Origin: Candidatus Velesiimonas alkalicola
GTDB lineage: Bacteria > Omnitrophota > Gorgyraeia > Velesiimonadales > Velesiimonadaceae
Direction: 5' to 3'
Length of the DNA stretch: 64,000 nt
Assembly: GCA_013626165.1 (NCBI GenBank)
Contig: NDHX01000003.1
Coordinates: forward strand, 115-64,114
A program made the translations under genes and the position numbers. Below, in pieces: positions 1 through 37,845 of the stretch. Within the stretch, counting starts at the first letter, position 1; the number at the start of each line of letters is the position of its first letter. The notes below the pieces were generated by a model that saw nothing but the letters and a program-made list of their open reading frames with translations, was not told the DNA's origin and ran no database searches.

Positions 1-2527
1 ACTACCCCGTCAACCTTCGGTTGACACCCCTTCAAAGAAGGGGAATTCTGACGGGGTGTTTTCAATTCTTTTGAAATACCTGATTTATCATAAGCCAAAA
101 CTTTTTTCATTCTCGGTAAAACCACGCTGTAAAAATGCTCACCCATTTCAACGCCAAGCCATTTTCTGCCAAGTTTATGCGCAACTGCGGTTGTCGTGCC
201 AGAGCCGAGGAAGAAGTCAAGAATTAGGTTTTCTCTTTCTGATGTGCTTTCAATTACCCTCTTTAAGACAATTTCTGCGTTCTCTGTTTGAAAGCCGATA
301 GTAAAAGTATATCCTTGAACATCTGTCCAATTAGTGTCCAAGGGTATCTTTTCTGATTCTAAATATTGTGGAATACCTGTTTTTTCGTTTATTCGTATTC
401 TTTCTTCAGATGCTAATTTGTCAAATTTTTCTTGAGAGAATCGCCAGTGTTGACCGGGAGGACACTTATATTCCTTTCCAAAAATTATAACTGTATTTTT
501 CTCTTTATTCTCTTTGGGAGAAAGACAATTAACCCATTTGATTTCTCTGTTTCTCTCTTTGAAAACTGGCAGAAAATAACTTAATATAGTTTTAGGATAA
601 TAAAACAATGATTCATTTGCTGGATTAAAGTTGTTTAATGGGCCTTGACTATTTGCTTTTCTTAAAATAATCTCTCTAAAATTATTTTTATTGTCTGAAA
701 ATAATTCATCCATCAAACACCTTACAATCCAATTCCCATTGTAGTCGCACCTAACAAAAATACTCCCTTTTTTATTTAAAACATCTTTTGCAATCTTTAA
801 TCTATTTTCAAGCAGTGTTGCCCAGTTGGCGTCTTTATAGTTTGTGCGGTATAAAAACTGGTCAGAAGAAGCTAAATTAAACGGCGGGTCAATGTAAATT
901 GTCTGCACTTTTTCTTTGAATTTCGGCAGGATTGTATTTAACGCCTGATAGTTTTCGGACTTTATCAGCCAGCCGTCTAAAGATTTATCTAAATCGTCAA
1001 ACTGGCTCAAAATTTCAAGTTCTAAATCCTTGAAATATTTTGTGTCTATGGGTAAATGCTTAAATTCCCCTTTTATTAAAAGGGGTGTCTGCGGAGCAGA
1101 CGGGGTATTTTCTTTTATCCAACTTTGTATTTGTTCAATAACCGAATTAATGCTTTTTTTTACATCTATATCTCTAAAATGAAGAACTTTTAATCCTAAA
1201 GATTGCAAATATTTCTCTCGTTCTTCATCACATTCAATTTTAAAATTGTGGCTTTCACCATCTATCTCAATTACTAATCTCAAATTTGGACAATAAAAAT
1301 CAACAATGCAATTACCTATGATTTGTTGACGAGTAAAGTCAAATCTTAATTTTTTATTTTTTAATTCATTCCATAAAAGAACCTCTGATAAATTTCCGGC
1401 CTTTCTTAATTCCCTTGCCCTTTGTTTTAAGTTTTGATTGTATGGTAATTTTAAATACCCCGTCAGTCCTTCGGACCGCCACCCCTTTACAAAAGGGGAA
1501 TTTTCAAAAACATCTTCTATCTTAAAATTTTCATCCACAATGCCAAGTTCCTGCCATTCTTTGATTTGCTCTCTAAAATTTTTATGCTTCAAGATTCTCT
1601 CTAATAAATTCCCCTCTTTTAGAGGGGTGTCTGCGAAAGCAGACGGGGTGTTTGCCTCTTTTAGAGGGGTGTCTGCGAAAGCAGACGGGGTGTTAGTCAG
1701 TTTATCTTTTAAATACTCTAATACTTCTTCCAAATTTTTCTTTACATCTAGATCAGAAATATGAATAACTTTGAGCCCAAGACTTTTTAAGCAATTATCT
1801 CTTTCTTTGTCATATTCTATCTTTCCATCGTGACTTACTCCGTCAATTTCAATAACAACTCCCAAATTCTTACAATAAAAATCAACTATATAATCTCCTA
1901 TAATTTTTTGTCTATCAAAATCTAAACTCAAAAATTTTTTATTTTTAACTTGATCCCAGAATAAAACTTCTGATAAATTGCCGGCTTTTCTTAACTCTTT
2001 TGCTCTTTCTTTTAGGTCAGGATTAAATGGTAATTCCTTCCATTTGACTACCCCGTCAGGCTTCGCCTGCCACCCCTTCGTAGAAGGGGAATTCTTGTAA
2101 ATCCTATCCAGCGTAATCACATAATTTGAGTTTTTGACAAACTTCGGCTTGTTCCAGATATTTACCAGTTCATCTTCAAACTGCGAGATAAAATCAATAA
2201 TTTTGAAAGCGATGCCTTTGAGAATTTGTAGTTGATTGACTCTATCCGCGCCCCACTCTTTGGCTCCTTCCCAAAAATACTGATAACTCCAAAGTTTAAA
2301 TTGCTCCTGCAAGAATGCTTTGGCATTTTTGTTGATAAAGAAATCAACCTCGCTCTGCTTTTCAAAAACTCTAAAAGCGCGTTCTAATTGTTCTTCGGTA
2401 ATTGCTATGCCTTTTCTCTTGATGGCTTTTAAGAGCTCGTCCTGTTTTGTTTTTGCACCTCCTTCTGAATACTGAACGTCAAAAACAATGGTGGCGCCTG
2501 CCCCGTAGGAAGCCGAAGGCTTTCCCA
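1..2527 (-). CDS. Composite DNA methyltransferase, continuation and C-terminal part (partial, runs off window start). Reading 5' to 3' on the minus strand it encodes: an N-terminal extension region, two tandem DUF559 / Vsr-like PD-(D/E)xK domains (~1860-1700 and ~1330-1170), then a beta-class amino-methyltransferase (motif IV IYIDPPFN at ~885, motif I DFFLGSGTT at ~175). No ATG start exists in this frame, so it is best read as joined to the 2429..3130 ORF through a frameshift. Type III Mod-like.
   Basis: Manual minus-strand translation gives one continuous open frame from ~2527 down to nt 1. Recognisable segments include VDFYCPNLRLVIEIDGESHNFKIECDEEREKYLQSLGLKV (DUF559), a second diverged copy (VDFYC...VIEIDGVSHD), QTIYIDPPFNL and LILDFFLGSGTTTAVAHKLGRKWLGVE. 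Five REP-like GC-rich elements are translated in-frame. Confidence 0.6.
6..58. repeat. GC-rich double-hairpin REP-like element (family A), copy in the methyltransferase C-terminal coding region
   Basis: ccccgtcaaccttcggttgacaccccttcaaagaaggggaattctgacggggtg. Nested hairpins GTCAACC/GGTTGAC and CCCCTT/AAGGGG. Confidence 0.7.
1063..1107. repeat. Family A REP-like element (in-frame in CDS)
   Basis: aattccccttttattaaaaggggtgtctgcggagcagacggggta. Encodes ...NTPSAPQTPLLIKGEF... Confidence 0.7.
1456..1503. repeat. Family A REP-like element (in-frame in CDS)
   Basis: taccccgtcagtccttcggaccgccacccctttacaaaaggggaatt. Encodes NSPFVKGWRSEGLTGYLK. Confidence 0.7.
1608..1693. repeat. Family A REP-like element, tandem duplicated (in-frame in CDS)
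   Basis: Two copies of cctcttttagaggggtgtctgcgaaagcagacggggtg. Encodes NTPSAFADTPLKEANTPSAFADTPLKE. Confidence 0.7.
2048..2096. repeat. Family A REP-like element (in-frame in CDS)
   Basis: ctaccccgtcaggcttcgcctgccaccccttcgtagaaggggaattc. Confidence 0.7.
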
Positions 2528-3645: not shown

Positions 3646-3681
3646 ATAGCAGTCTAATTTTGCTATAATCTCCGATGTTAA

Positions 3682-3751
3682 ATGACAAATGTCAAAATCC
3701 AAATGTCATTTGAGATTTGTCATTTGTCATTTATTTCCCATTTGTCATTTG
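3682..3751. repeat. Tandem and inverted TGTCATTTG 9-mer repeats (5-6 copies) upstream of tRNA-Val
   Basis: atgacaaatgtcaaaatccaaatgtcatttgagatttgtcatttgtcatttatttcccatttgtcatttg. Confidence 0.6.
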
Positions 3752-23954: not shown

Positions 23955-24752
23955 CTACAAGGTTATTATTGCTGTTATTTTTTCTCCAAGAATCTTTGTT
24001 CCAATCTTTTCAAAACCTTCAGGGTCATCACTTACATAACATTTAAGGAAACCTTTATTGTTTGGACTTAAAATCTTATTTTTTTCAAGGTAATCTTTGA
24101 CAGAACTTGCACAGACGGAGGCTGAATTTACGATATAAATTTTTTTACCCAGAATCTTACTTATAGTGCTTTCAAGAATTGGATAATGCGTACAACCTAA
24201 AATAAGTGTATCTATGTTTTTATCAATTAAACCCCTTAAATACTCTCTTGCAATATCTTCAACAATCTTTCCTCCTGTTCTTCCTTCTTCAACCAGCGGG
24301 ACAAATAAAGGACAGGCTTTACTAAAAACTTTTAAACCTGAATCTAACTTAATGAGATGCTTTTGATATGACTGGCTCTTAATTGTTGTCTGTGTGCCTA
24401 TGACACCTATTCTTTTATTTCTTGTTTTCTTTGCCGCAATTTTTGCACCCGGTTCAATCACACCCATAATAGGAACAGAAAAGTATTTTTCCAGTGTTGA
24501 AAGTGCCACACTTGAAGAAGTATTGCAGGCAATGATTATTATTTTTACTTTATGTTTTAAAAAAAACAACACATTTTCTATTGAAAAACGAAGTATGGTA
24601 TCATTTGACTTTGTGCCGTAAGGAACCCTTGCCGTATCCCCGAAATATATTATAGACTCACGGGGGAGGATTTTTCTTATCTGCTTAACAACTGTAAGCC
24701 CACCGAGCCCTGAGTCAAAAACGCCTATGGGAAGCCTGCCTGGAGAAACCAT
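23955..24752 (-). CDS. murI: Glutamate racemase
   Basis: 265 aa. VFDSGLGGLTV ... LGCTHYP. Confidence 0.85.
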   Translation of the reverse strand: MVSPGRLPIGVFDSGLGGLTVVKQIRKILPRESIIYFGDTARVPYGTKSNDTILRFSIENVLFFLKHKVKIIIIACNTSSSVALSTLEKYFSVPIMGVIEPGAKIAAKKTRNKRIGVIGTQTTIKSQSYQKHLIKLDSGLKVFSKACPLFVPLVEEGRTGGKIVEDIAREYLRGLIDKNIDTLILGCTHYPILESTISKILGKKIYIVNSASVCASSVKDYLEKNKILSPNNKGFLKCYVSDDPEGFEKIGTKILGEKITAIITL

Positions 24753-25824
24753 CTGTCTTTTCGTATAATTCTTTAAATCTTAAAATGCCATCAGCAATGG
24801 ATTCTGCAACCATTTTTTGATAGTGTGTATTTGTTAATTTGGATGCCTCCCAACGGTTTGAAAGAAAACCGACCTCAACAAGAACAGAAGGTATGTGTGT
24901 CCATTTTAACACATAAAAGCGGGCTGTCTTTGAACCCCTGTTGGGGGTGGCAAGGCTTCTGTCAAGAGAACTGACAATTAACTGTGAGAGTTGTTTTGAT
25001 TCTATCTTGTTTTCATCCTGAATAATATCCCAGAGTAGTGCTCTTATATTAAGTCCAACATTTTCAGAAATTCCCCCCTCATATTTTAAGCGACCACGCT
25101 CTACCGCTTCTTTAAGGCGGGATTCTTCATCCATAGGACCACCAAGTGAAAACACCTCAAAACCTTTTGGCCTTGTTCTTGTTCTTCTCCTTCCCCTGCA
25201 TGCATTACAGTGTATGCTGACAAAAATATCTGCACCAGATGTATTTGCAATTCTTACTCTTTGAGAAAGAGGAACAAAAACATCTGTTTTTCTTGTCATT
25301 ATAACTTCTATACCGTTGGAAAGAAGTTCTTTTTCAAGATGTCTTGCTATTGAAAGATTTATATCATCCTCATGAATACCAAAGTGCACTGCACCCGGGT
25401 CATGTCCGCCATGCCCTGCATCAATAACTATTCTTCTTATCCTGTGAACAGCGGATGGAACAAGAGCAGGAATGAGAAAAACTTGGACAGCATCCTTTGA
25501 TATAAAAAGTGCACCGCTTTTATAGATAAGCGGTAATTTAAGGGTTGTAGGTTGATTATTTATTAAAGCAGTATTTGAATTAATAAAAAATACTGCTTCA
25601 TGCTCAGGACTTCTTATGGTAAATTTCTGTGAAATGACATCCCATTCCCAAATCAAATTATTTCTGTTGCAAAATTCAACTACATTTACATATCTAGAAA
25701 TATCAGGATGTGGCACTCTTCTATATGGGGCGGGAACACAACCGGACATAAATAAAATACACATACAACCAAGCCACAAAGGCGCAAAGAAAAAATTAAA
25801 AATAAACAATTTTATGTTTTTCAT
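24715..25824 (-). CDS. N-acetylmuramoyl-L-alanine amidase (AMIN domain plus amidase_3)
   Basis: 369 aa. IVIDAGHGGHDPGA. Signal/lipoprotein N-terminus. Confidence 0.8.
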   Translation of the reverse strand: MKNIKLFIFNFFFAPLWLGCMCILFMSGCVPAPYRRVPHPDISRYVNVVEFCNRNNLIWEWDVISQKFTIRSPEHEAVFFINSNTALINNQPTTLKLPLIYKSGALFISKDAVQVFLIPALVPSAVHRIRRIVIDAGHGGHDPGAVHFGIHEDDINLSIARHLEKELLSNGIEVIMTRKTDVFVPLSQRVRIANTSGADIFVSIHCNACRGRRRTRTRPKGFEVFSLGGPMDEESRLKEAVERGRLKYEGGISENVGLNIRALLWDIIQDENKIESKQLSQLIVSSLDRSLATPNRGSKTARFYVLKWTHIPSVLVEVGFLSNRWEASKLTNTHYQKMVAESIADGILRFKELYEKTDGFSRQASHRRF

Positions 25825-26066
25825 TTTTTTCTTAAAAAAAATATACCGCTCTGTTAATTCCCATTCCCTTTTATGGCAAGAGTATATTCCGTTGTCTGTT
25901 TATCTTGTACTTCATACAATACTGGGGTGGTAGCGTTTATTTGACCAAATCTGAACTTTTTTGCCTGCGCCTGCCAAAGTCCGAAGGACAACAGAGGGAG
26001 CAAAACTGACGCTCCGCCCCCCAGAGGCCTTTGAATCACTCTACATTCAAAAAATCTCAGTGATTC

Positions 26067-26456
26067 TCATTTCATTAGCCTGCTCACCAGCCAGATAACC
26101 ACCACGAGCACCAGTATCACTAATGCCAGCTTGATGATGCCCGGCCCCACCAGCCTGGCTGCTACCAGAATAAACACCAGCAAGATAACAGGCACGATAA
26201 ACCAGCCCCAGAACCTCCCGGATGGTAATTCCCTCATGGAGGTTACTCCCCCGGAGTGATCATATGCCGCCCTCCTGTCAGAATCGGAGAGCACCTCATA
26301 GGCTTCATTAAGCTGCTTCATCTTCTCGGCCGCATCCGGCGAGGTGCTCACATCGGGATGGTACTTTGCTGCCAGTCGGCGATAGGCGGCGACGACCACC
26401 TCTCTGTCTGCCTCGGGATGGACCTGCAGGGTAGCGTAATAGTCAGGCTTTCCCAT
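26067..26456 (-). CDS. J-domain (DnaJ-like) membrane protein, inside the high-GC island
   Basis: 129 aa. DYYATLQVHPEADREVVVAAYRRLAAKYHPD plus a C-terminal TM helix. GC-rich codon usage. Confidence 0.7.
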   Translation of the reverse strand: MGKPDYYATLQVHPEADREVVVAAYRRLAAKYHPDVSTSPDAAEKMKQLNEAYEVLSDSDRRAAYDHSGGVTSMRELPSGRFWGWFIVPVILLVFILVAARLVGPGIIKLALVILVLVVVIWLVSRLMK

Positions 26457-26472
26457 TGCCTAAGTGCGGTTC

Positions 26473-27339
26473 TCATTCCCTGGGCTGCGGACTCACCAGG
26501 AATCTGAAGAGCTCGGAGTTAGATCCCAACACCAGGGTAGTTTCCCCAACAAGGAATTTCTCGTATGCCTCCAGTGTCCTCAGAAAGGCGTAGAACTCAG
26601 GGGCTTGCCCAAAGGCTTCGGCATAGATGCTGGCGGCCCCAGCTTCTCCCTCTCCCCTGAGGATCAGGGCAGCCCTCTCAGCCTCGGCCAGTAGAACCAC
26701 TACCTCTCTATCTGCGCTGGCCCTGATTTTCATGGCCTCCTGTGCCCCTTCAGCACGAGCCTCCTTGGCCATCCGGTCTCGCTCCGCTCTCATCCGGGCA
26801 AAAACAGCCTCTTCTACCCCTTCAGGGAGGTCGGCCCTTCTCATCCGGACGTCTATTACCTCGATACCAAACTCACGGCGAGCAACCTCATCTACATGTC
26901 GGCCTACGGTCTCCATAATCGGCTTCCTCTCGACGCTAATTATGTCCCAGAGGTTGTGTCGAGCAATCTCCTCCCGTAATCTGGAGATAGCAATGCTATT
27001 TAACCTGAGCCTGGCCCCATGTTCATCTCTTACCGACTCGTAAAATCGGAGCGGAACTACAATCCGCCACCGGCTGTAACTATCCACCAGCAGCCTCTCT
27101 TTGTCCAGGGTAATGAACTCCGTCGCCGGGGCATCAGCAAACAATATCCTTCTTTCCATGCGGGATACTGTTTGAATGAAAGGGACTTTGAAGTTTATCC
27201 CTGGTTCCTTGATCGTCCTTATATATTCCCCAAATTGCAGAATGATCGCCTGCTCAGCCTCGTCTATCGTAAATATGGTCTGACCTAACATGAACATGGC
27301 CGCCACTACGATTATTACGGTTATCATTAATTTTCTCAT
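26473..27339 (-). CDS. hflC: HflC (SPFH/band-7 protease modulator), inside the high-GC island
   Basis: 288 aa SPFH domain. GC-rich. Confidence 0.8.
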   Translation of the reverse strand: MRKLMITVIIVVAAMFMLGQTIFTIDEAEQAIILQFGEYIRTIKEPGINFKVPFIQTVSRMERRILFADAPATEFITLDKERLLVDSYSRWRIVVPLRFYESVRDEHGARLRLNSIAISRLREEIARHNLWDIISVERKPIMETVGRHVDEVARREFGIEVIDVRMRRADLPEGVEEAVFARMRAERDRMAKEARAEGAQEAMKIRASADREVVVLLAEAERAALILRGEGEAGAASIYAEAFGQAPEFYAFLRTLEAYEKFLVGETTLVLGSNSELFRFLVSPQPRE

Positions 27340-28370
27340 TGTTCACCCCCCAGGTCCCTCAGTGGCAGAAACGGCATCAGGTTGCCGCCGACTGCGGGAT
27401 CGATAATGATTTTCTCGGTTCCGGCAAGAACCCGTTCTATCGTCTCCAGGTATAGCCTCTGTCGGGTCACTGCCGGTGCCATCTGGTACTCCGCAAGAAT
27501 TTTGAGAAACCGCGCTGTATCACCCTCAGCCAGCGCTATCCTTTCGTCCCTAAAGGCAGTGGCGGCGTGTGTTTTCGCTGCCGCCTCTCCCCTGGCTCGG
27601 GGAACTATATCCCGGGCGTACCCTTCAGCCTCTCTCTGAAGCCTTTCCCTATCTGCCTTAGCCCGGACCACATCGTAGAAGGCTTCCCTGACTTCTTCTG
27701 GCGGGTCCACTACCTGTAGTTCCACTCTAATTACATGCAGTCCCGTCAGATGAGCATCCAGCAGAGACTGCAGAAACTCCCAGGTTCCTGCTTCTACATC
27801 AGGGCGACCCACGGTCATCGCATGATCAATATCCATGTTCCCGATAACACTGCGCAGGGCGACCTCAGTATTTACGCGCAGAGCCTCCTCGGGACCTTCA
27901 GTCCGGAATAGATAGGTAGGTGCATCCTTCACCTGATAAAGCACCAAAACCTGGACATCAGCGATATTCCTATCCCCGGTGAGCATCAGCGATTCCAATG
28001 GCATTCGCGCGTGTCTCGGCGGTCTCCCCGGCCTCTCTACCGTCCGAAAGCCGATCTCGGCCCTCCTTACCGCAAGCACATTCACCACATTATGGCTCTG
28101 AATTGGCCAGGGCAGGCGATATTTCAACCCGGGGTCAGTTTGGGATACAAATTTCCCGAATTGCCTCACCACCCCCACTTCGGCGGGCCCAACCGTGTAG
28201 ATTCCACTTGCCAGCCAGATTGCCACCACAACCCCTATTACGAGCCATATTATTGGCCCTATCTTCACCGGCTTGCCCTTCTTCTCACCACCCATCCACC
28301 CGACTATCTCCTGCCAGATATCCTCCCATGGCATCTGGCTTCCTGCTCCTCCTCCTAATCCTCCGTTCAC
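27336..28370 (-). CDS. hflK: HflK (SPFH/band-7 protease modulator), inside the high-GC island
   Basis: 344 aa. VGPAEVGVVRQFGKF... Overlaps the hflC start. GC-rich. Confidence 0.8.
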   Translation of the reverse strand: MNGGLGGGAGSQMPWEDIWQEIVGWMGGEKKGKPVKIGPIIWLVIGVVVAIWLASGIYTVGPAEVGVVRQFGKFVSQTDPGLKYRLPWPIQSHNVVNVLAVRRAEIGFRTVERPGRPPRHARMPLESLMLTGDRNIADVQVLVLYQVKDAPTYLFRTEGPEEALRVNTEVALRSVIGNMDIDHAMTVGRPDVEAGTWEFLQSLLDAHLTGLHVIRVELQVVDPPEEVREAFYDVVRAKADRERLQREAEGYARDIVPRARGEAAAKTHAATAFRDERIALAEGDTARFLKILAEYQMAPAVTRQRLYLETIERVLAGTEKIIIDPAVGGNLMPFLPLRDLGGEQ

Positions 28371-28687
28371 TTCTACGCCTCCTTTCTTTTTTCTACTCGT
28401 TTTACTCGTCCGGGTTCCGTTCCCGGAGAGACTTGATTTTACACTTCATATAATACAGTTAATGTGTTTATTTAACCAAACCTAAACCCTTTGCCTGCTC
28501 GCCAAAACCCGAAAAGCAACGAAGGGAACTAAGCCAACCGCTTCTGTTTTGCTCCGGCGGCAACGCTTCCGACATATTTACTCTGTTCTCCACAACGAGA
28601 AAAACATAAACCCTGATTGATTGGGAATTTCCTCTAAATTATTTTCAATTGGTCTTGTTTTTAAGTTAATTTTCCCATACAATTTTA

Positions 28688-29533
28688 TTACTTATACCTT
28701 TGCCATTTTACTTTTGTAGTAGAATTAGAATTTTCAACTTTACTATCAGGTTTTTTTGCTAAAATTAAATATTTAAATCCTCGCAAAAAGAAATTAAATT
28801 TTTGGGCCCGATAATGCCAAATTCTAGTATTTGAGCTTTGATTTTTTCTTGTAACACATATTAAATCTACGGGCTCAAATTTTATATTATCAATTAACAT
28901 TTGATAAATTTTTAATCCAACAGGAGTAAATTTTTTCTTTACCCATTGGTCACCAATAAGCCACCCTATTACCTTACCGGGTTTCAAAATTCTGTAAATC
29001 TCCCCGGCAACCTTTTCTAATTCCTCGAAAAATTTTGGACCCTCGGCAGAAATTTTACCAATATCTGCAAGCTCGTTAGAATAATTAACGTTATCGCCAT
29101 AAGGGGAATCTATAAAAACCATATCTACCGAATTATCTTTAAGTGGAATTTTCCGCGAATCATTTTTTACAACTTTGGGGTGCTGCGGGTTTATATCATA
29201 GCCGATTACTTTTCTTCCTTCCTCCTCACAGACATCAATCGTTGTTCCGCTCCCGCACATTGGATCAACTACCAAATCGTCCGGCCTCGTGTATCTTTGT
29301 AGCATATTCCAAATGATAAAAGCAGGTGTAACGCCCTGAAACTTATTATTGCCTTTTGGTTTTTTGCCGTAGCTTTGCCTTGAAAAATCCCAAAGGGTGG
29401 TCGTCTCAAAAGGTGGTTTTTCTTCTTCTATTTTCTTCTTTTTTATTTCTCTCTCGTTCGAACTTTCATTCAGTTTTTGAGATTTTATCTCACCAATTTT
29501 TGTATTCTGTTTTACGGCTATTGTGTTTTGCAT
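28688..29533 (-). CDS. Small orphan N6-adenine/N4-cytosine methyltransferase (motif I DPMCGSGTT, then motif IV IDSPYG)
   Basis: 281 aa. VTPAFIIWNMLQRYTRPDDLVVDPMCGSGTT resembles the PF01555 AdoMet region. DSPY lies ~55 aa downstream. No adjacent restriction gene. An RNA methyltransferase of the RsmD type is not fully excluded. Confidence 0.6.
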   Translation of the reverse strand: MQNTIAVKQNTKIGEIKSQKLNESSNEREIKKKKIEEEKPPFETTTLWDFSRQSYGKKPKGNNKFQGVTPAFIIWNMLQRYTRPDDLVVDPMCGSGTTIDVCEEEGRKVIGYDINPQHPKVVKNDSRKIPLKDNSVDMVFIDSPYGDNVNYSNELADIGKISAEGPKFFEELEKVAGEIYRILKPGKVIGWLIGDQWVKKKFTPVGLKIYQMLIDNIKFEPVDLICVTRKNQSSNTRIWHYRAQKFNFFLRGFKYLILAKKPDSKVENSNSTTKVKWQRYK

Positions 29534-29827
29534 AAAATTTTTTTAATCAACTTGTCCACCTTAACATCCAACACAGATGCAATTTTTGACAGAGTATCAA
29601 TTGTTGGTGGTGCATATAGAAATCGAACCATGCATCCCCGAACTTCCGCAAACAAAGAGGCTTTGCCCCTCTGGTATCACCCCTTGAATACTGGGGAAGC
29701 CTCTTCCCCAGACCCCTTCTATGACGCGGGTATATTCTATTACCTATTTTCTGCACTTCATTCAATATCTTTTATCTTTTTTCCTACCTCCTACCTACTA
29801 TCTCCTATCTCCTATCTCCTATCTTTT

Positions 29828-30178
29828 TGGTGGAGGTGGCGGGAATCGAACCCGCGTCCTGAAAACCCTGGCCAAGGTATCTACATCCGTGTCTATTCTA
29901 TTGTCTTTCGCAGTACAAAACACCGAACAGCAGGTTTCTTATACCACTATGGCTTATTGTTCTTGTTCACAGGTTCAAGCCCGAAACCTGCGAACCAGCC
30001 TGCAAACCGACATCCTTTCAAATCTTACAGGCAGAGATTTGAAGGATGTGACTGCTTAAGCAGCCAATGCTAAGTGTTCGTTAGCGTTTGTTTTTTGTCA
30101 GGTTTTCAACGAGGCCACCTGACAACCTCGGGATGCAACCTTCACCAGCAATTTTTCAGTCGAGCCCTATTCACCCCC
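29828..30178 (-). ncRNA. ssrA: tmRNA (ssrA), tag peptide ANEHLALAA
   Basis: 5' end GGGGGTGAATAGGGCTCGAC. 3' end GGACGCGGGTTCGATTCCCGCCACCTCCACCA. Internal reading frame GCT AAC GAA CAC TTA GCA TTG GCT GCT TAA. ~351 nt. smpB adjacent. Confidence 0.85.
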
Positions 30179-30294
30179 AATCTTTAAATCTGTATAATTT
30201 TGAACTTAAAAATCCGAATTTTAATTGAATTTTAAAAACATTCAAAATTGGAAATTAAAAACTCATCCCCTACCTACTATCTACTATCTCCTAT

Positions 30295-30834
30295 CTACTG
30301 TCTTTTTGCCTCTCTTGTTTCTCTTTCTATCTGACGTTTTTTAATTTTTTCTCTTTTGTCAAAGATACGTTTTCCCTTGCATAATGCAATCTCAATTTTT
30401 GTAAATCCTTTTTTAAAATACACCTTTAAAGGGACAAGTGTACAACCTTTCTGCGTAAGATATCCGATAATTTTTTTAACCTCGTAATTATGTAAAAGGA
30501 GCCTCCTGGGCCTTTTGGGGTCAATCTTCTCAAGTGCACCAGATGTATAGGGTGCTATATGCATATTAAAAAGCACAATACCTGATGAATCAGCCCTTGC
30601 ATATGCATCGCTTATTTCAACATCACCCTGCCTTATTGATTTTACCTCGCTTCCTTTTAATGATATTCCCGCTTCCCATTTCTGGAGTATCAGATAAGTA
30701 TAATATGCCTTCTTGTTGGTTGCAACTGCTCTTTCTTCCACTTGTGTATAATACCATAAAAAATAATGTTCTACAAGATTCCAGCCTGTCCTTGCTAATC
30801 TGTGGCAAGGCAGGCTCGTAAAACTTGGAAGCAA
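30295..30834 (-). CDS. smpB: SsrA-binding protein SmpB (true start probably downstream of the first ATG)
   Basis: NKKAYYTYLILQKWEAGISLKGSEVKSIRQG... The ORF-track N-terminus looks like an extension. Confidence 0.8.
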   Translation of the reverse strand: MLPSFTSLPCHRLARTGWNLVEHYFLWYYTQVEERAVATNKKAYYTYLILQKWEAGISLKGSEVKSIRQGDVEISDAYARADSSGIVLFNMHIAPYTSGALEKIDPKRPRRLLLHNYEVKKIIGYLTQKGCTLVPLKVYFKKGFTKIEIALCKGKRIFDKREKIKKRQIERETREAKRQ

Positions 30835-30886: not shown

Positions 30887-32248
30887 TTAAACTTTTATAG
30901 GAATCCGTTCAACAGGACGAACCTCAGGTAATTGCTTATCCCCGGATGCTCCCAATTCCTTGAATTTTCTAACACTGACCATAATCCTGTGTTCAAGCGA
31001 CATAATCATCTTGTTAAACGATTCTGTTGCCTCAGATAGACATGTTCCTGTCCTATTCACATGCTGTAAAAATGGTTCAAACCTATCGTATATTTCTTTA
31101 CCGAGAGTTGCAATCTCCTCAGCATGTTTTGAGATTTGCTCCTGTCTCCATCCAAATGCAACGGCACGAAGCAGTGCTATAAGAGTTGTGGGTGTAGCAA
31201 TAATAACCTTGTTTTCCATGCCATCTTCAATCAATGTGTGGTCAACAGCAAGAGCGGCGCTTAAAAAAGATTCGCCCGGAATAAACATAATAATAAATTC
31301 CGGTGTTTTATTGAATTGCTCCCAATATTTTTTGTTAGTTAAAGTCTTCATATGATTTCTTACCTGACGAGAGTGCTTTTCTATAAGCAACTGCCTTTGT
31401 CCTTCATCAGCCACTGCTGTAGCATCAATAAATGCATCTAAAGAAACTTTGCTATCAATAACAATCTCTCTGCCTCCCGGCAAATACACCACCATGTCGG
31501 GACGCAACCTCCCATCTTCGGTAGCAATAGACACCTGTTCTATGAAATCACAGTGTTCTGACATACCTGATAGTTCTACAACCCGTTTTAAGGTTACCTC
31601 GCCCCATCTACCCCTAATTTCAGGCTTGCGAAGCGCAGTAACAAGATTCCCGGTTTCTTTCTGTAATTGCTGGTTTGTTAAAACTAATGTCTTGATTTGA
31701 TTTTCAAGACTTCCATAATCCGACGCACGCCTTTTTTCCAATGCGTCTACCTGTTGTTCATACCTTTTTAATGCATCACTTAGCGAGCCAACTATATTTT
31801 TGACGGATTCTTCTTTCTCACCCAATTCGCCTCTGGCTCTGATAAGGACAGTCTCTAATGTCTCTTTTGCAAGTTCAATAAACGCTTTACTGTTGCTTTT
31901 TAAAGACTCTCCCGATAATGCCTGGAATGTTGTTGTTAATTTCTCTTCGGCTTTTTGAAGTAGTTTTTTCTGCTCTTCAATATTCTTAAATGCTTCTTCA
32001 CACCGCACTTGGGCAGATATTTTAGCCTGCTGTAAACTTAAAATTTCCTGTCGTGCCTTTTCAATTGTTTCATCCTTAAATCCTACCTGTTGCCGTATTT
32101 CGTCGGTCAATTTTTCAGAACCTTGAATCTGCGTCTGCAAGCGGATAATAATTTTATCTTTATTACGGTTTTTTCTTGATGCAATAACAATGCCTACTAT
32201 TAAGCCCACGCCCATTGAAATGACTATATAATAAAGAATAGCAATCAT
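30887..32248 (-). CDS. rmuC: DNA recombination protein RmuC
   Basis: 453 aa. N-terminal TM, coiled-coil, RmuC C-terminal domain. Confidence 0.8.
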   Translation of the reverse strand: MIAILYYIVISMGVGLIVGIVIASRKNRNKDKIIIRLQTQIQGSEKLTDEIRQQVGFKDETIEKARQEILSLQQAKISAQVRCEEAFKNIEEQKKLLQKAEEKLTTTFQALSGESLKSNSKAFIELAKETLETVLIRARGELGEKEESVKNIVGSLSDALKRYEQQVDALEKRRASDYGSLENQIKTLVLTNQQLQKETGNLVTALRKPEIRGRWGEVTLKRVVELSGMSEHCDFIEQVSIATEDGRLRPDMVVYLPGGREIVIDSKVSLDAFIDATAVADEGQRQLLIEKHSRQVRNHMKTLTNKKYWEQFNKTPEFIIMFIPGESFLSAALAVDHTLIEDGMENKVIIATPTTLIALLRAVAFGWRQEQISKHAEEIATLGKEIYDRFEPFLQHVNRTGTCLSEATESFNKMIMSLEHRIMVSVRKFKELGASGDKQLPEVRPVERIPIKV

Positions 32249-32440
32249 AGTATCTATTATAAATACTTTCTAATATTAAAACAATAAAAAATTTATTTTT
32301 ACATGGAGAAACGGGAAGGAACACATCCCTGCCCCGATCCCTGTTTGCACAAGGGCAAGTTTATCGAGGAAGAAGAAAAATGGAGAAAAATGGGGTCAAC
32401 TCTATTTTTCTTTAACAATTTGTGCTATGATAAACCAACT

Positions 32441-33139
32441 ATGCCAAGATCCTTACGAATTACTCTTCCAAATCTGCCTTTCCATGTCCTTGACCGGGGG
32501 AACAATCGTCAAGTAGTTTTCCGAGACGAGCAAAATTTTATTTATTTCCTTAAATTATTGAAAAGATATAAAAAGGAGTTGAAATTCAAGCTCTACCACT
32601 TTTGCCTGATGCCAAACCATATCCATTTAGTGATTGAGCCGACAATTGATGGCAGCCTACCTAAGATTATGATGAGACTTACCCTGGCTTACTCTTCGTA
32701 TTTCAATAAAAAGTATGGTGGAGTAGGTCATGTCTGGCAGGGGAGATATAAAAGTTCTTTAATAGATAGAGAAGAATATTTTATCTGGTGTGGATTATAT
32801 GTAGAGTTAAATCCAGTAAGAGCAGGACTGGTAGTTCGGTCAGAAGATTGGCGATGGTCAAGTTATAATTTCTATGCCTTTGGGCCAGGCGATCCCTTAA
32901 TAGAAGGATTAATTGATGTCGATTCTTATTATTTAAAATTAGGAGAGACTTCAGAAGAACGTCAAAAAAGATACCGCCAGAACGTAGAGGAAGTAATAAA
33001 AGAAAAATTTTTGCAAGATATTCGAAAGAAATTAGATGAAGGAGTTTTTGGAAGTTTAGAATTTATTAAAGCAATGAAAGAGAAATTTAAAATTAAATCG
33101 TTAATGGGTAGAGGAAGACCAAGGAGGGAGGAAAAATAG
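32441..33139 (+). mobile_element. REP-associated tyrosine transposase (RAYT; IS200/IS605 Y1 HUH transposase family), single copy, plus strand
   Basis: MPRSLRITLPNLPFHVLDRGNNRQVVF...LYHFCLMPNHIHLVIEP (HuH)...GHVWQGRYKS (catalytic Y). The ORF track starts at 32303, but the internal ATG at 32441 matches the family N-terminus. Confidence 0.75.
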
Positions 33140-36531: not shown

Positions 36532-36651
36532 GTCTCCTCCTAAAAACATAGTATATAGGAATTGGTAGGTAGGAGATAGGGGAAAATATAATCCACCCAA
36601 CCCTCCTTTATAAAAGGAGGGTTATTTTTCCTACCTACTACCTACTATCTA

Positions 36652-37845
36652 CTATCTACTATCTACTGCCTCCTGTTTTTTAAATACCTGTTCAACATCT
36701 TTATCTCCTCTGCCTGACAGGCAGATAATAATTATTTTATCTTTCAAGGCTCTGGCATTTTTTCTAACATATGCAACAGCATGTGCAGGTTCAAGGGCAG
36801 GTATGATGCCCTCTACTTCTGAAAGGAAATGGAATCCGCTGAGTGCTTCTGCATCTGTGATTGTAAAATATTTTGCTCTTCCCGTTTGTTTTAGATATGA
36901 ATGTTCAGGACCAACACCGGGATAATCAAGCCCGGCAGATATTGAATGTGCAATGCTTATCTGACCATTTTTATCCTGTAGAATATAACTCTTGCTACCG
37001 TGGAGTATTCCTATTTTTCCATAACAAAGTGTTGCAGCATGCCTGCCTGTTTTTATGCCAAAACCTGCTGCTTCAACACCTATAAGTTTAACATTTTTAT
37101 CTTTTATAAACGGATAAAAGAGCCCCATTGAATTTGAACCGCCGCCAACACAGGCAATCAAACAATCAGGAAGTTTTCCTTCACATTTTAATATCTGTTT
37201 TTTTGCCTCTTTTCCAATAACAGATTGAAAATCTCTTACCATCATTGGAAAAGGATGTGGACCTGCAACAGAACCTATCACATAATGTGTGTTTCTTACA
37301 TTGGTTACCCAATCCCTCATAGCCTCGTTCATTGCATCTTTTAGTGTCTTTGAACCCATATATACGGGATTTACCTTTGCACCAAGAAGCTGCATCCTGA
37401 ACACATTCAACCTCTGTCTTTCAATGTCCTCTTCCCCCATATATATCTCACACTTAAGACCAAATAAAGAAGAGGCTGTGGCAGTTGCAACTCCATGCTG
37501 GCCGGCGCCGGTTTCTGCAATGATCCTTTGCTTTCCTATTTTTTTTGCAAGTAAAATTTGACCCAGAGTATTATTTATCTTATGAGCACCCATATGGCAC
37601 AAATCTTCTCTTTTAAGATATATCTTTGGCCCTCTTAAAACATGAGAAAGATGTTTTGCATAATAAAGCGGTGTGGGTCTTCCGGCATAATTTTCCAGAT
37701 ACCACTTCAGTTCTTTCTGAAATTCAGTGTCTTTCTTTGCCTTTGTGTATGCTGTTTCAAGTTCATCAAGAGCAAACATCAATGTCTCAGGAACAAACCT
37801 GCCGCCGAACTGACCAAAATGTCCTTTTTTATCCGGTAATTTCAT
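36652..37845 (-). CDS. trpB: Tryptophan synthase beta chain
   Basis: 397 aa. [33 protein letters not shown]. Confidence 0.85.

Follow-up and report, generated by a model that had tools for sequence, protein, structure and literature searches.

The window analysed here is a 64-kb stretch of contig NDHX01000003.1 of Candidatus Velesiimonas alkalicola (Omnitrophota), and its region of interest is the DNA that separates ssrA, the gene for transfer-messenger RNA (tmRNA), from ami, which encodes an N-acetylmuramoyl-L-alanine amidase. Along the minus strand, the features follow one another in the order rmuC, smpB, a heptamer array, ssrA, a second heptamer array, a spacer of about 100 nucleotides (nt), a tRNA-like piece, a 45-amino-acid (45-aa) open reading frame (ORF) holding the end of a helix-turn-helix (HTH) protein, a methyltransferase gene, 317 nt of non-coding DNA, a block of high guanine-plus-cytosine (GC) content, 242 nt of non-coding DNA, ami, and murI (glutamate racemase) (Table 1). 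The tmRNA gene is intact: its CCA is encoded, ARAGORN reports the tag ANEHLALAA, and the Rfam match spans the full model, bearing out the canonical 3' end assigned to it in a previous sequence-only reading of this DNA. The smpB product is 99% identical to the 148-aa SsrA-binding protein (P0121) of 'bacterium Unc6', and the nearest relatives beyond the species, which are Omnitrophota, reach approximately 55% identity at most.

Two sets of comparison genomes were used, namely distant relatives and same-species sister strains from other assemblies whose MurI protein is 100% identical. Among the former, the order smpB-ssrA-ami-murI is found in L079 and L082, whose ssrA and ami are only 110-160 nt apart, while L078 reads smpB-ami-murI, and smpB-ssrA-murI is the order in both L009 and L017, an Omnitrophota single-cell genome. 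In the window, approximately 3.9 kb separates ssrA from ami. Because the distant relatives keep the conserved arrangement, these 3.9 kb represent an insertion, and the comparison of ssrA 3' neighbourhoods that the sequence-only reading had called for directly reveals a break of synteny in the window. Additional DNA that appeared to follow ssrA in L157 and L158 was rejected, as these stretches are runs of N introduced by scaffolding.

Table 1. Features of the ssrA-ami region and its surroundings (positions in the window)
Feature	Position	Strand	Basis or remark
rmuC	30887-32248	minus	
smpB, 148 aa	30295-30741	minus	Pfam SmpB, 1e-52
Heptamer array upstream of ssrA, (GATAGGA/GATAGTA)n	30270-30303	minus	TRF
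ssrA (tmRNA), intact, CCA encoded	29828-30178	minus	ARAGORN; Rfam RF00023, 189 bits
Heptamer array, 4 nt after the tmRNA CCA	29782-29824	minus	TRF
Copy S: core TATTGAATGAAGT (29755-29767) and right arm	29714-29767	minus	Right arm homologous to 25866-25921
Perfect 9-bp hairpin, CTGGGGAAG-AGG-CTTCCCCAG	29691-29711	minus	2 nt past the end of the S-A homology
tRNA-like fragment	29605-29683	minus	Terminator-like hairpin, 29656-29672; T-loop/acceptor/CCA-like end, 29605-29629
C', last 22 codons of an XRE/HTH controller gene	29542-29607	minus	HTH_3 profile positions 34-55 of 55
281-aa methyltransferase ORF	28688-29533	minus	PF01555, 5e-27
M2, first 20 codons, now the start of the chimera	29474-29533	minus	100% identical to the N-terminus of M2 of L167
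M1, codon 18 to stop, from a BsaWI-family restriction-modification cassette	28688-29473	minus	Homology to L165/L167 begins at 29473
Copy B: left arm and core TATTATATGAAGT (28443-28455), upstream of hflK	28443-28527	minus	
High-GC block, 54.6% GC	26067-28370	minus	Composition; Pfam
hflK	27336-28370	minus	Pfam Band_7
hflC	26473-27339	minus	Pfam Band_7
DnaJ-domain membrane protein	26067-26456	minus	Pfam DnaJ
Copy A (sole complete copy): left arm, core TATTGTATGAAGT (25909-25921) and right arm, directly upstream of ami	25866-25999	minus	
ami	24715-25824	minus	Pfam Amidase_3
murI	23955-24752	minus	Precomputed Pfam PF01177 (Asp/Glu racemase)
Third heptamer array	36631-36671		Inverted partial copy at 36563-36582

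The 13-nt core TATTNNATGAAGT occurs in exactly three exact copies, all on the minus strand, against approximately 0.1 expected by chance from composition. Since copies with one mismatch show no excess (four, versus 3.2 in shuffled sequence), the motif count alone is weak evidence, and the case rests on the alignments of the adjoining arms. Copies A and B are similar in the core and leftward of it (66 of 91 columns in the alignment identical), and copies S and A from the core rightward (42/56), each with p<0.001 against shuffles; the arms are thus 73-75% identical. The three sites can be written as S = x-core-R', B = L'-core-y and A = L-core-R, and this repeat architecture is directly observed. 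The core of copy S lies 60 nt beyond ssrA, and homology with the spacer beside ami extends as far as 114 nt beyond the ssrA CCA, which puts the insertion points 60-115 nt beyond the gene. As judged from these alignments, the target of insertion is the spacer and not ssrA. A partial fourth core, a 10-nt match (CCCCAGTATT) at 29687-29696, was rejected as not significant. An ATG AAG within each core also starts a short ORF (MKYKINRQRNILLP, MKCKIKSLRERNPDE and MKCRK) with no upstream Shine-Dalgarno sequence. The core of copy B is readable as a -10 box as well, 18 nt after TTGGTT, and the left arm and core of this copy may form a promoter or leader.

The origin of the methyltransferase gene can be read from sister strain L167. 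Its sequence starts at the tRNA-like piece and continues with the remnant of a controller gene (C'), a first methyltransferase gene (M2), a 270-nt spacer, a restriction gene (R), a second methyltransferase gene (M1) and hflK; the order R-M1-hflK recurs in L165. M2 of L167 belongs to PF01555, carries a TSPPYN motif and is interrupted twice, by a TGA in frame and by a scaffold gap; R is an intact RE_BsaWI gene (233 aa, PF18643, 1.5e-31), intact in L165 too, and M1 encodes 277 aa with the N-terminus MPKEIKNNK... In the window, the N-terminus of the 281-aa protein, MQNTIAVKQNTKIGEIKSQK, is 100% identical to residues 1-20 of M2, and the protein matches M1 from LNESSN on. A deletion of approximately 1.86 kb (L167 positions 212-2069) joined the two genes in frame and removed the remainder of M2, the whole of R and M1 codons 1-17; its junction, 29473/29474, lacks microhomology. 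The 281-aa gene is hence a chimera, M2'-'M1, and both the deletion and the polymorphism between strains with the restriction gene (R+) and without it (R-) are observed directly. The two alleles are present in one sample (L165 and L157), and M1 differs between R+ and R- strains in one of 262 codons, indicating that the loss of R is very recent.

The sequence-only reading had described this gene as an orphan methyltransferase, a label that is right for the window strain insofar as the partner R is gone, while what it marks is a polymorphism of the population and not an established solitary methyltransferase. A tblastn search with the L167 enzyme as query found no restriction-enzyme homolog in the 64-kb window, and phmmer of the enzyme against PDB gave no match. 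The chimeric protein retains the S-adenosylmethionine-binding and catalytic motifs DPMCGSGTT and DSPY, its distant relatives in PDB are beta-class N4C/N6A methyltransferases, and it is predicted to be active; it would be expressed from the start of M2 and may still protect the sites of its lost partner. As a type II restriction-modification (R-M) system, the window strain thus has a methyltransferase with its motifs and lacks a restriction gene and an intact HTH controller. Dam and CcrM are conserved, lineage-wide orphan methyltransferases. The chimera resembles solitary methyltransferases derived from R-M systems in that the ORF is intact save for its replaced N-terminus and no cognate restriction gene is found nearby, whereas, unlike Dam or CcrM, it is a polymorphism separated from the R+ allele by a single codon change rather than an orphan conserved throughout a lineage.

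Homologs of the methyltransferase with 70-91% identity are found in Candidate Phyla Radiation (CPR) bacteria, Aerophobetes, WOR-3 and Pacearchaeota. In every context examined, the homolog is paired with a BsaWI-family restriction enzyme (PF18643), often with an HTH controller gene ahead, and these M1-type cassettes, with or without the controller gene, occupy unrelated host neighbourhoods. At the DNA level, homology between the window and cassettes in other phyla covers 29429-28688 and ends exactly at the stop codon of M1. The sister strains share with controller-regulated BsaWI-family systems (PF18643 and PF01555) the overlap of R with M1, as seen in cassettes L070-L076, which have an upstream HTH controller; the window strain departs from them in that R is deleted, the controller gene is cut to its last 22 codons and the N-terminus of M1 is borrowed. 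On another metagenome contig (L164, 1599-3121), the same R-M1 cassette fits precisely between carA and carB, with abutting gene boundaries, a case that shows compact insertion of the R-M1 pair.

The controller remnant C' forms the C-terminus of the 45-aa ORF and is 50% identical to residues 51-72 of the controller protein of L076; the N-terminal half of the controller was not found in any frame. Homology of C' ends at the codons CCA-ACA, exactly where the tRNA-like piece ends in ...CACCACCA. This junction is the same in all strains and therefore predates their divergence; it reads GGTTCGATTTCTATA-TGCACCACCA in the window, GGTTCGATTCCTAATGTGCATCACCA in L157 and GATTCAATTCCTAATGTGCACCACCA in L167. 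The piece itself, to which the sequence-only reading had drawn attention as a T-arm-plus-CCA-like sequence at 29606-29690, is indeed present, with a true span of 79 nt (29605-29683), and lies 137 nt downstream of the tmRNA 3' end on the same strand. Its last 25 nt fit the pattern GGTTCGATT-N10-CCACCA exactly, as does only one other site in the 64 kb, the true tmRNA 3' end. Since the chance of such a fit is well under 1e-3 for the window (a composition-based estimate), these 25 nt very probably derive from a tRNA-type 3' end. The 5' half consists of the terminator-like hairpin followed by TTTGTTTG.

The view that the piece cannot form a proper cloverleaf was upheld, in that ARAGORN called no tRNA at 29605-29683 and the Rfam tRNA (RF00005) and tmRNA (RF00023) models gave no match to it even at E<=10. 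Rfam at permissive thresholds returned nothing relevant for the fragment or for 25.7-28.7 kb. A Smith-Waterman alignment of the fragment with the resident tmRNA was not significant (p=0.2), and global alignment of all 79 nt with 48 tRNAs did not outscore shuffled sequence; the reading of the fragment as an entire tRNA in decay, with tRNA-Pro as seen beside related cassettes included, was rejected as its scores equal those of shuffled controls. Also discarded was a marginal resemblance between the 5' half and the tRNA-Val T-arm (p=0.02, uncorrected for multiple tests). Among the strains, the T-loop reads GATTCAATT in L167 and the CCACCA motif reads CATCACCA in L157, so that the T-loop consensus with a 3' ACCA at the right spacing fits the window strain and is altered in the other two. 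The three variants differ at 5-6 positions within approximately 25 nt, both motifs included, and in L157 the C' frame is closed by a stop codon five codons upstream. Because the T-loop and CCACCA motifs vary among strains that are ~99% identical in flanking genes, the tRNA-like piece is best read as a neutral, unconstrained relic. Nevertheless, a junction placed exactly at a tRNA-type 3' end suggests past recombination of the integrase type, which may have occurred in this genome or in a donor.

The island of high GC that had been recognized beyond the methyltransferase was confirmed (52-55% GC; 54.6% over 26067-28370, compared with 37.8% for the whole window). The best relatives of its HflK outside the species are from Dehalococcoidia and Atribacteraceae (78-80%), and together with the methyltransferase relatives across phyla this marks the insertion as foreign, horizontally acquired DNA. 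The junction from M1 to hflK is identical in L060, L061, L165 and L167, and that from dnaJ to ami is present in L165-L168 (one run from another project). As the junctions of the block recur in at least four assemblies, independent of one another, the block is not a chimera. Within the species it occurs as two alleles approximately 6% apart, in a tract from ~28190 to 26300 (window versus L165, L166 and L167), with each gene differing at 30-31 codons synonymously and at 18-21 non-synonymously, and with an estimated ratio of non-synonymous to synonymous substitution rates (dN/dS) of roughly 0.2. The flanking M1, ami and murI are identical between strains carrying differing alleles, and the tract suggests that recombination took place with a diverged lineage likewise carrying the block. 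The idea that this divergent tract ends at the 13-nt cores was rejected, since the tract lies inside genes and, as a homologous-recombination tract, is uninformative on the core. HflC is truncated in L166. In ami, a 216-nt deletion in the N-terminal part (25472-25688) shortens the protein of L165 to 295 aa, versus 369 aa.

A search for mobility genes combined Pfam scans of the ORFs around ssrA and of non-overlapping ORFs of at least 110 aa outside 14.1-34.4 kb (six smaller ones left out) with precomputed Pfam annotations of same-species contigs for 14-35 kb. It found no integrase in the 64 kb. The only mobility-type gene in the window is an IS200-like Y1 transposase gene (PF01797, 278 aa, 32303-33139, plus strand), 2.5 kb away, which lies between rmuC and purA in all strains. 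The 23-nt 3' end of ssrA, with up to three mismatches allowed, matched only itself in the window, and blastn-short detected nothing of it near 25.8-26.1 or 28.4-28.7 kb. The integrase and the matching ssrA direct repeats that the sequence-only reading had suggested looking for along the contig are thus not found in the window.

Cyanobacteria have intergenic heptamer tandem repeats, known as short tandemly repeated repetitive (STRR) sequences, and heptamer arrays bracket ssrA in the window, as had been proposed. The two arrays form a 40-nt direct repeat of 93% identity, and their 14-nt double unit has ten matches against 0.5 expected. Because a third array lies at 36631-36671, the arrays are not specific to ssrA. 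In the distant relative L082, (TAGGGTA)n occupies the same place after the tmRNA, and loci of CPR and Omnitrophota type often contain 7-nt arrays, built from many different units. Several assemblies break or carry scaffold Ns at the array after ssrA, and the upstream one differs in other assemblies by +21 nt, or by +7/-21 nt with a replaced segment. Accordingly, the arrays are dispersed, hypervariable simple repeats typical of the lineage and not attachment sites, and the proposed link to integration did not stand. The TAACTGA heptamer repeats of Beggiatoaceae, Cyanobacteria and Bacteroidetes, which in the Beggiatoaceae genome studied lie mostly just upstream of start codons (PMC4679880), come closest to them, being comparable in having 4-8 copies of a 7-nt unit and in being intergenic, dispersed, oriented with transcription and variable in copy number, but the unit in the window is GATAGGA/GATAGTA and all three arrays are at gene 3' ends.

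Several further observations concern these repeats. The genes that end at the three arrays are smpB, the tmRNA gene and a gene for a PALP enzyme (36652-37845), and the stop codons of smpB (TAG, 30295-30297) and of the PALP-enzyme gene lie within the arrays. The 7-nt period places TAG in all three reading frames, and the units also contain the Shine-Dalgarno-like AGGAG. A set of 1.7 Mb comprising L001-L156 and the window, in which certain loci are duplicates from one genome, yielded 146 arrays of 7-nt period; for 20 of them a tRNA or tmRNA gene lies no more than 150 nt away, versus 6.4 expected at random placement, a figure uncorrected for intergenic bias. The smpB-ssrA spacer (30180-30300) has three alleles among same-species assemblies (the window, L060/L160 and L157/L159): in one the array is longer by 21 nt, and another has other repeat units and a swap of ~60 nt just upstream of ssrA that takes in the only sigma-70-like promoter match (30218-30245). 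Heptamer arrays are also present between tRNA-Leu and tRNA-Val (3675-3751), where the minus strand, (TTGACAT)-like, reads as tandem -35-like hexamers upstream of tRNA-Val.

Elsewhere in the window, a 42-nt unit (CCTCTTTTAGAGGGGTGTCTGCGAAAGCAGACGGGGTGTTTG) with hairpins inside is perfectly duplicated in tandem at 1613-1694. At the window edge (108-263, minus strand), a weak tblastn match to the C-terminal part of M2 (35% over 52 aa) suggests a further N4/N6 methyltransferase gene.

Taken together, the explanation that we favour, with a confidence only a little above even, is that the ssrA-ami spacer holds two accreted and decaying modules of horizontally acquired DNA that entered it by insertion with target duplication. 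Module 1 (~29713-28456) would consist of R-M remains, namely the relic tRNA-like 3' end, C', M2, the BsaWI-family R and M1, and module 2 (28442-25922) of the high-GC hflK-hflC-dnaJ-like block. Both are proposed to have entered the spacer at the core and not at ssrA: module 1 would have inserted to the right of the core, duplicating core-R (56 nt), and module 2 subsequently at the same point, duplicating L'-core (91 nt), with no need for an integrase encoded by either element. The relic is taken in this model to be imported or historical. Later decay would then have removed the N-terminal half of the controller at the relic junction, introduced a stop codon into M2 in at least one strain and, in the window strain, fused M2 codons 1-20 to M1 codon 18 through the illegitimate 1.86-kb deletion, with the loss of R. 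The order and mechanism of the insertions are what we infer from the arrangement of the arms.

R-M units that insert with long target duplication are a described class (Furuta, Abe and Kobayashi 2010, PMC2853133), in which an insert of <20 kb carries R and M between repeats of >30 bp. The present locus has this composition, with R and M1 judged in the R+ strains, and shares with the class a compact R-M unit without a mobility gene, long imperfect direct repeats (56 and 91 nt), and a cassette that occurs at many unrelated loci with homology ending at a gene boundary. It differs in that the hflKC-dnaJ module is not an R-M system and the repeats are old (73-75% identity). Several points weigh against the proposed target duplication. 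SmpB scans of genome and metagenome contig collections returned only the same species (99%) or relatives of at most ~55%, and no close relative with an empty ssrA-ami site was found, so that the duplications are deduced from paralogous similarity only. The two duplicated segments share the same 13 nt as their overlap, a pattern also to be expected from conservative site-specific recombination at a common core, and module 2, having no R-M genes, is not strictly covered by the published precedent. Moreover, the simplest source of a T-loop/CCA relic that ends exactly at the C' breakpoint is an integrase working on a tRNA-type site, and that the methyltransferase is active is a prediction.

On the other hand, the modules might have accumulated as site-specific cassettes, with two circular elements integrating in turn at the core to give the hybrid sites S, B and A; the core would then be where a recombinase, since lost or else encoded at another place, made its crossovers. 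We regard this alternative as possible yet rather unlikely. The two similarity tracts meet exactly in the shared 13 nt, as they do in attL/attR hybrids, the three cores lie on one strand, each ahead of one module, and the relic and the truncated controller gene hint at past integrase activity. However, the window contains no recombinase other than the IS200-like Y1 gene, the arms are only 73-75% identical, the core has no obvious dyad symmetry, and the attP arms of the second element would have to match both the arm of the first element and the native arm. Target duplication is preferred over site-specific recombination because no recombinase was found, because R-M1 moves as a bare gene pair and because of this demand on the attP arms.

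A classical integrase-mediated island in the 3' end of ssrA, with 29605-29683 representing the gene's displaced and decayed end (attR-type), was the proposal of the sequence-only reading, and we now consider it improbable. Genes for tmRNA are known hot spots of integration, and in Dehalococcoides 20-bp ssrA repeats bound tandem islands (PMC3146451, which also cites 'sublocations' of integration within tmRNA genes). As in those islands, foreign DNA of odd composition lies in tandem just downstream of a single-copy tmRNA gene, breaks conserved synteny directly after it and varies between strains; the fragment, moreover, has the same strand and the same spacing from GGTTCGATT to CCA as the tmRNA 3' end. 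Unlike those islands, the locus has no integrase module and no 20-bp repeat that matches the ssrA 3' end at the module boundaries, including the far end, and its insertion points fall past the gene instead of inside its T-loop or 3' end. The fragment shares only the generic T-loop and CCA with ssrA, and its acceptor and T-stem are unlike those of ssrA. In addition, the 137-nt stretch in between contains the ami-proximal spacer homology and looks like native spacer or a duplicated arm, and clearly foreign DNA (C', M2, R and M1) lies past the fragment. Of the proposed island, a foreign insertion that breaks synteny therefore stands, while the integrase, the distal ssrA repeat and the crossover within the gene do not; the decayed attachment-site duplicate falls as well, the piece being inside the foreign module and not conserved between strains. 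The methyltransferase and fragment are not invariant core sequence either, as the region varies between strains.

Two more speculative ideas are jointly given a similarly low probability. In one, the three-copy core with its hybrid arms would be a cassette-accretion site of an undescribed kind in the ssrA-ami spacer, lacking its own integrase and served by a recombinase in trans, with the relic tracing an original target of tRNA type. In the other, the heptamer arrays would be functional gene-end elements, providing stops in every frame or signals for termination or processing, and typical of Omnitrophota and CPR.

It is very unlikely that the tRNA-like piece is functional, whether as a minihelix, a processing signal of the RNase P type or, for the transcript of ssrA or the methyltransferase, a terminator complex. 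All three strain variants keep a hairpin (ATGCAT / TGCA-type stem) with ACCA after it, and the pairing of the upstream terminator-like hairpin is kept too, with G.T becoming G-C in L167. However, the stem persists because TGCA is self-complementary, which does not speak for covariation, the fold does not exceed shuffles in stability (z = -0.85), no RNA family matches, and the T-loop and CCACCA mutate freely. Finally, a chimeric assembly join at the high-GC block or the methyltransferase junction, which the abrupt GC shift and the breaking of several assemblies nearby might bring to mind, hardly deserves consideration, given that the M1-hflK and dnaJ-ami junctions are shared among assemblies and that contigs break at the heptamer arrays and not at the GC boundary.

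The locus is accordingly an ordinary genomic islet, a routine case of acquired defence DNA decaying beside a tmRNA gene. Insertion beside ssrA need not mean integration into ssrA, and here the repeat architecture points to the spacer as the target. Annotators should be warned that the 281-aa gene is chimeric and that a T-loop/CCA look-alike can sit in imported DNA. The most instructive feature is the directly documented transition from R+ to R-, which created a chimeric orphan methyltransferase and offers a clean population snapshot of the birth of such a gene, in which one in-frame deletion drops the restriction gene and grafts on the start of a neighbour.

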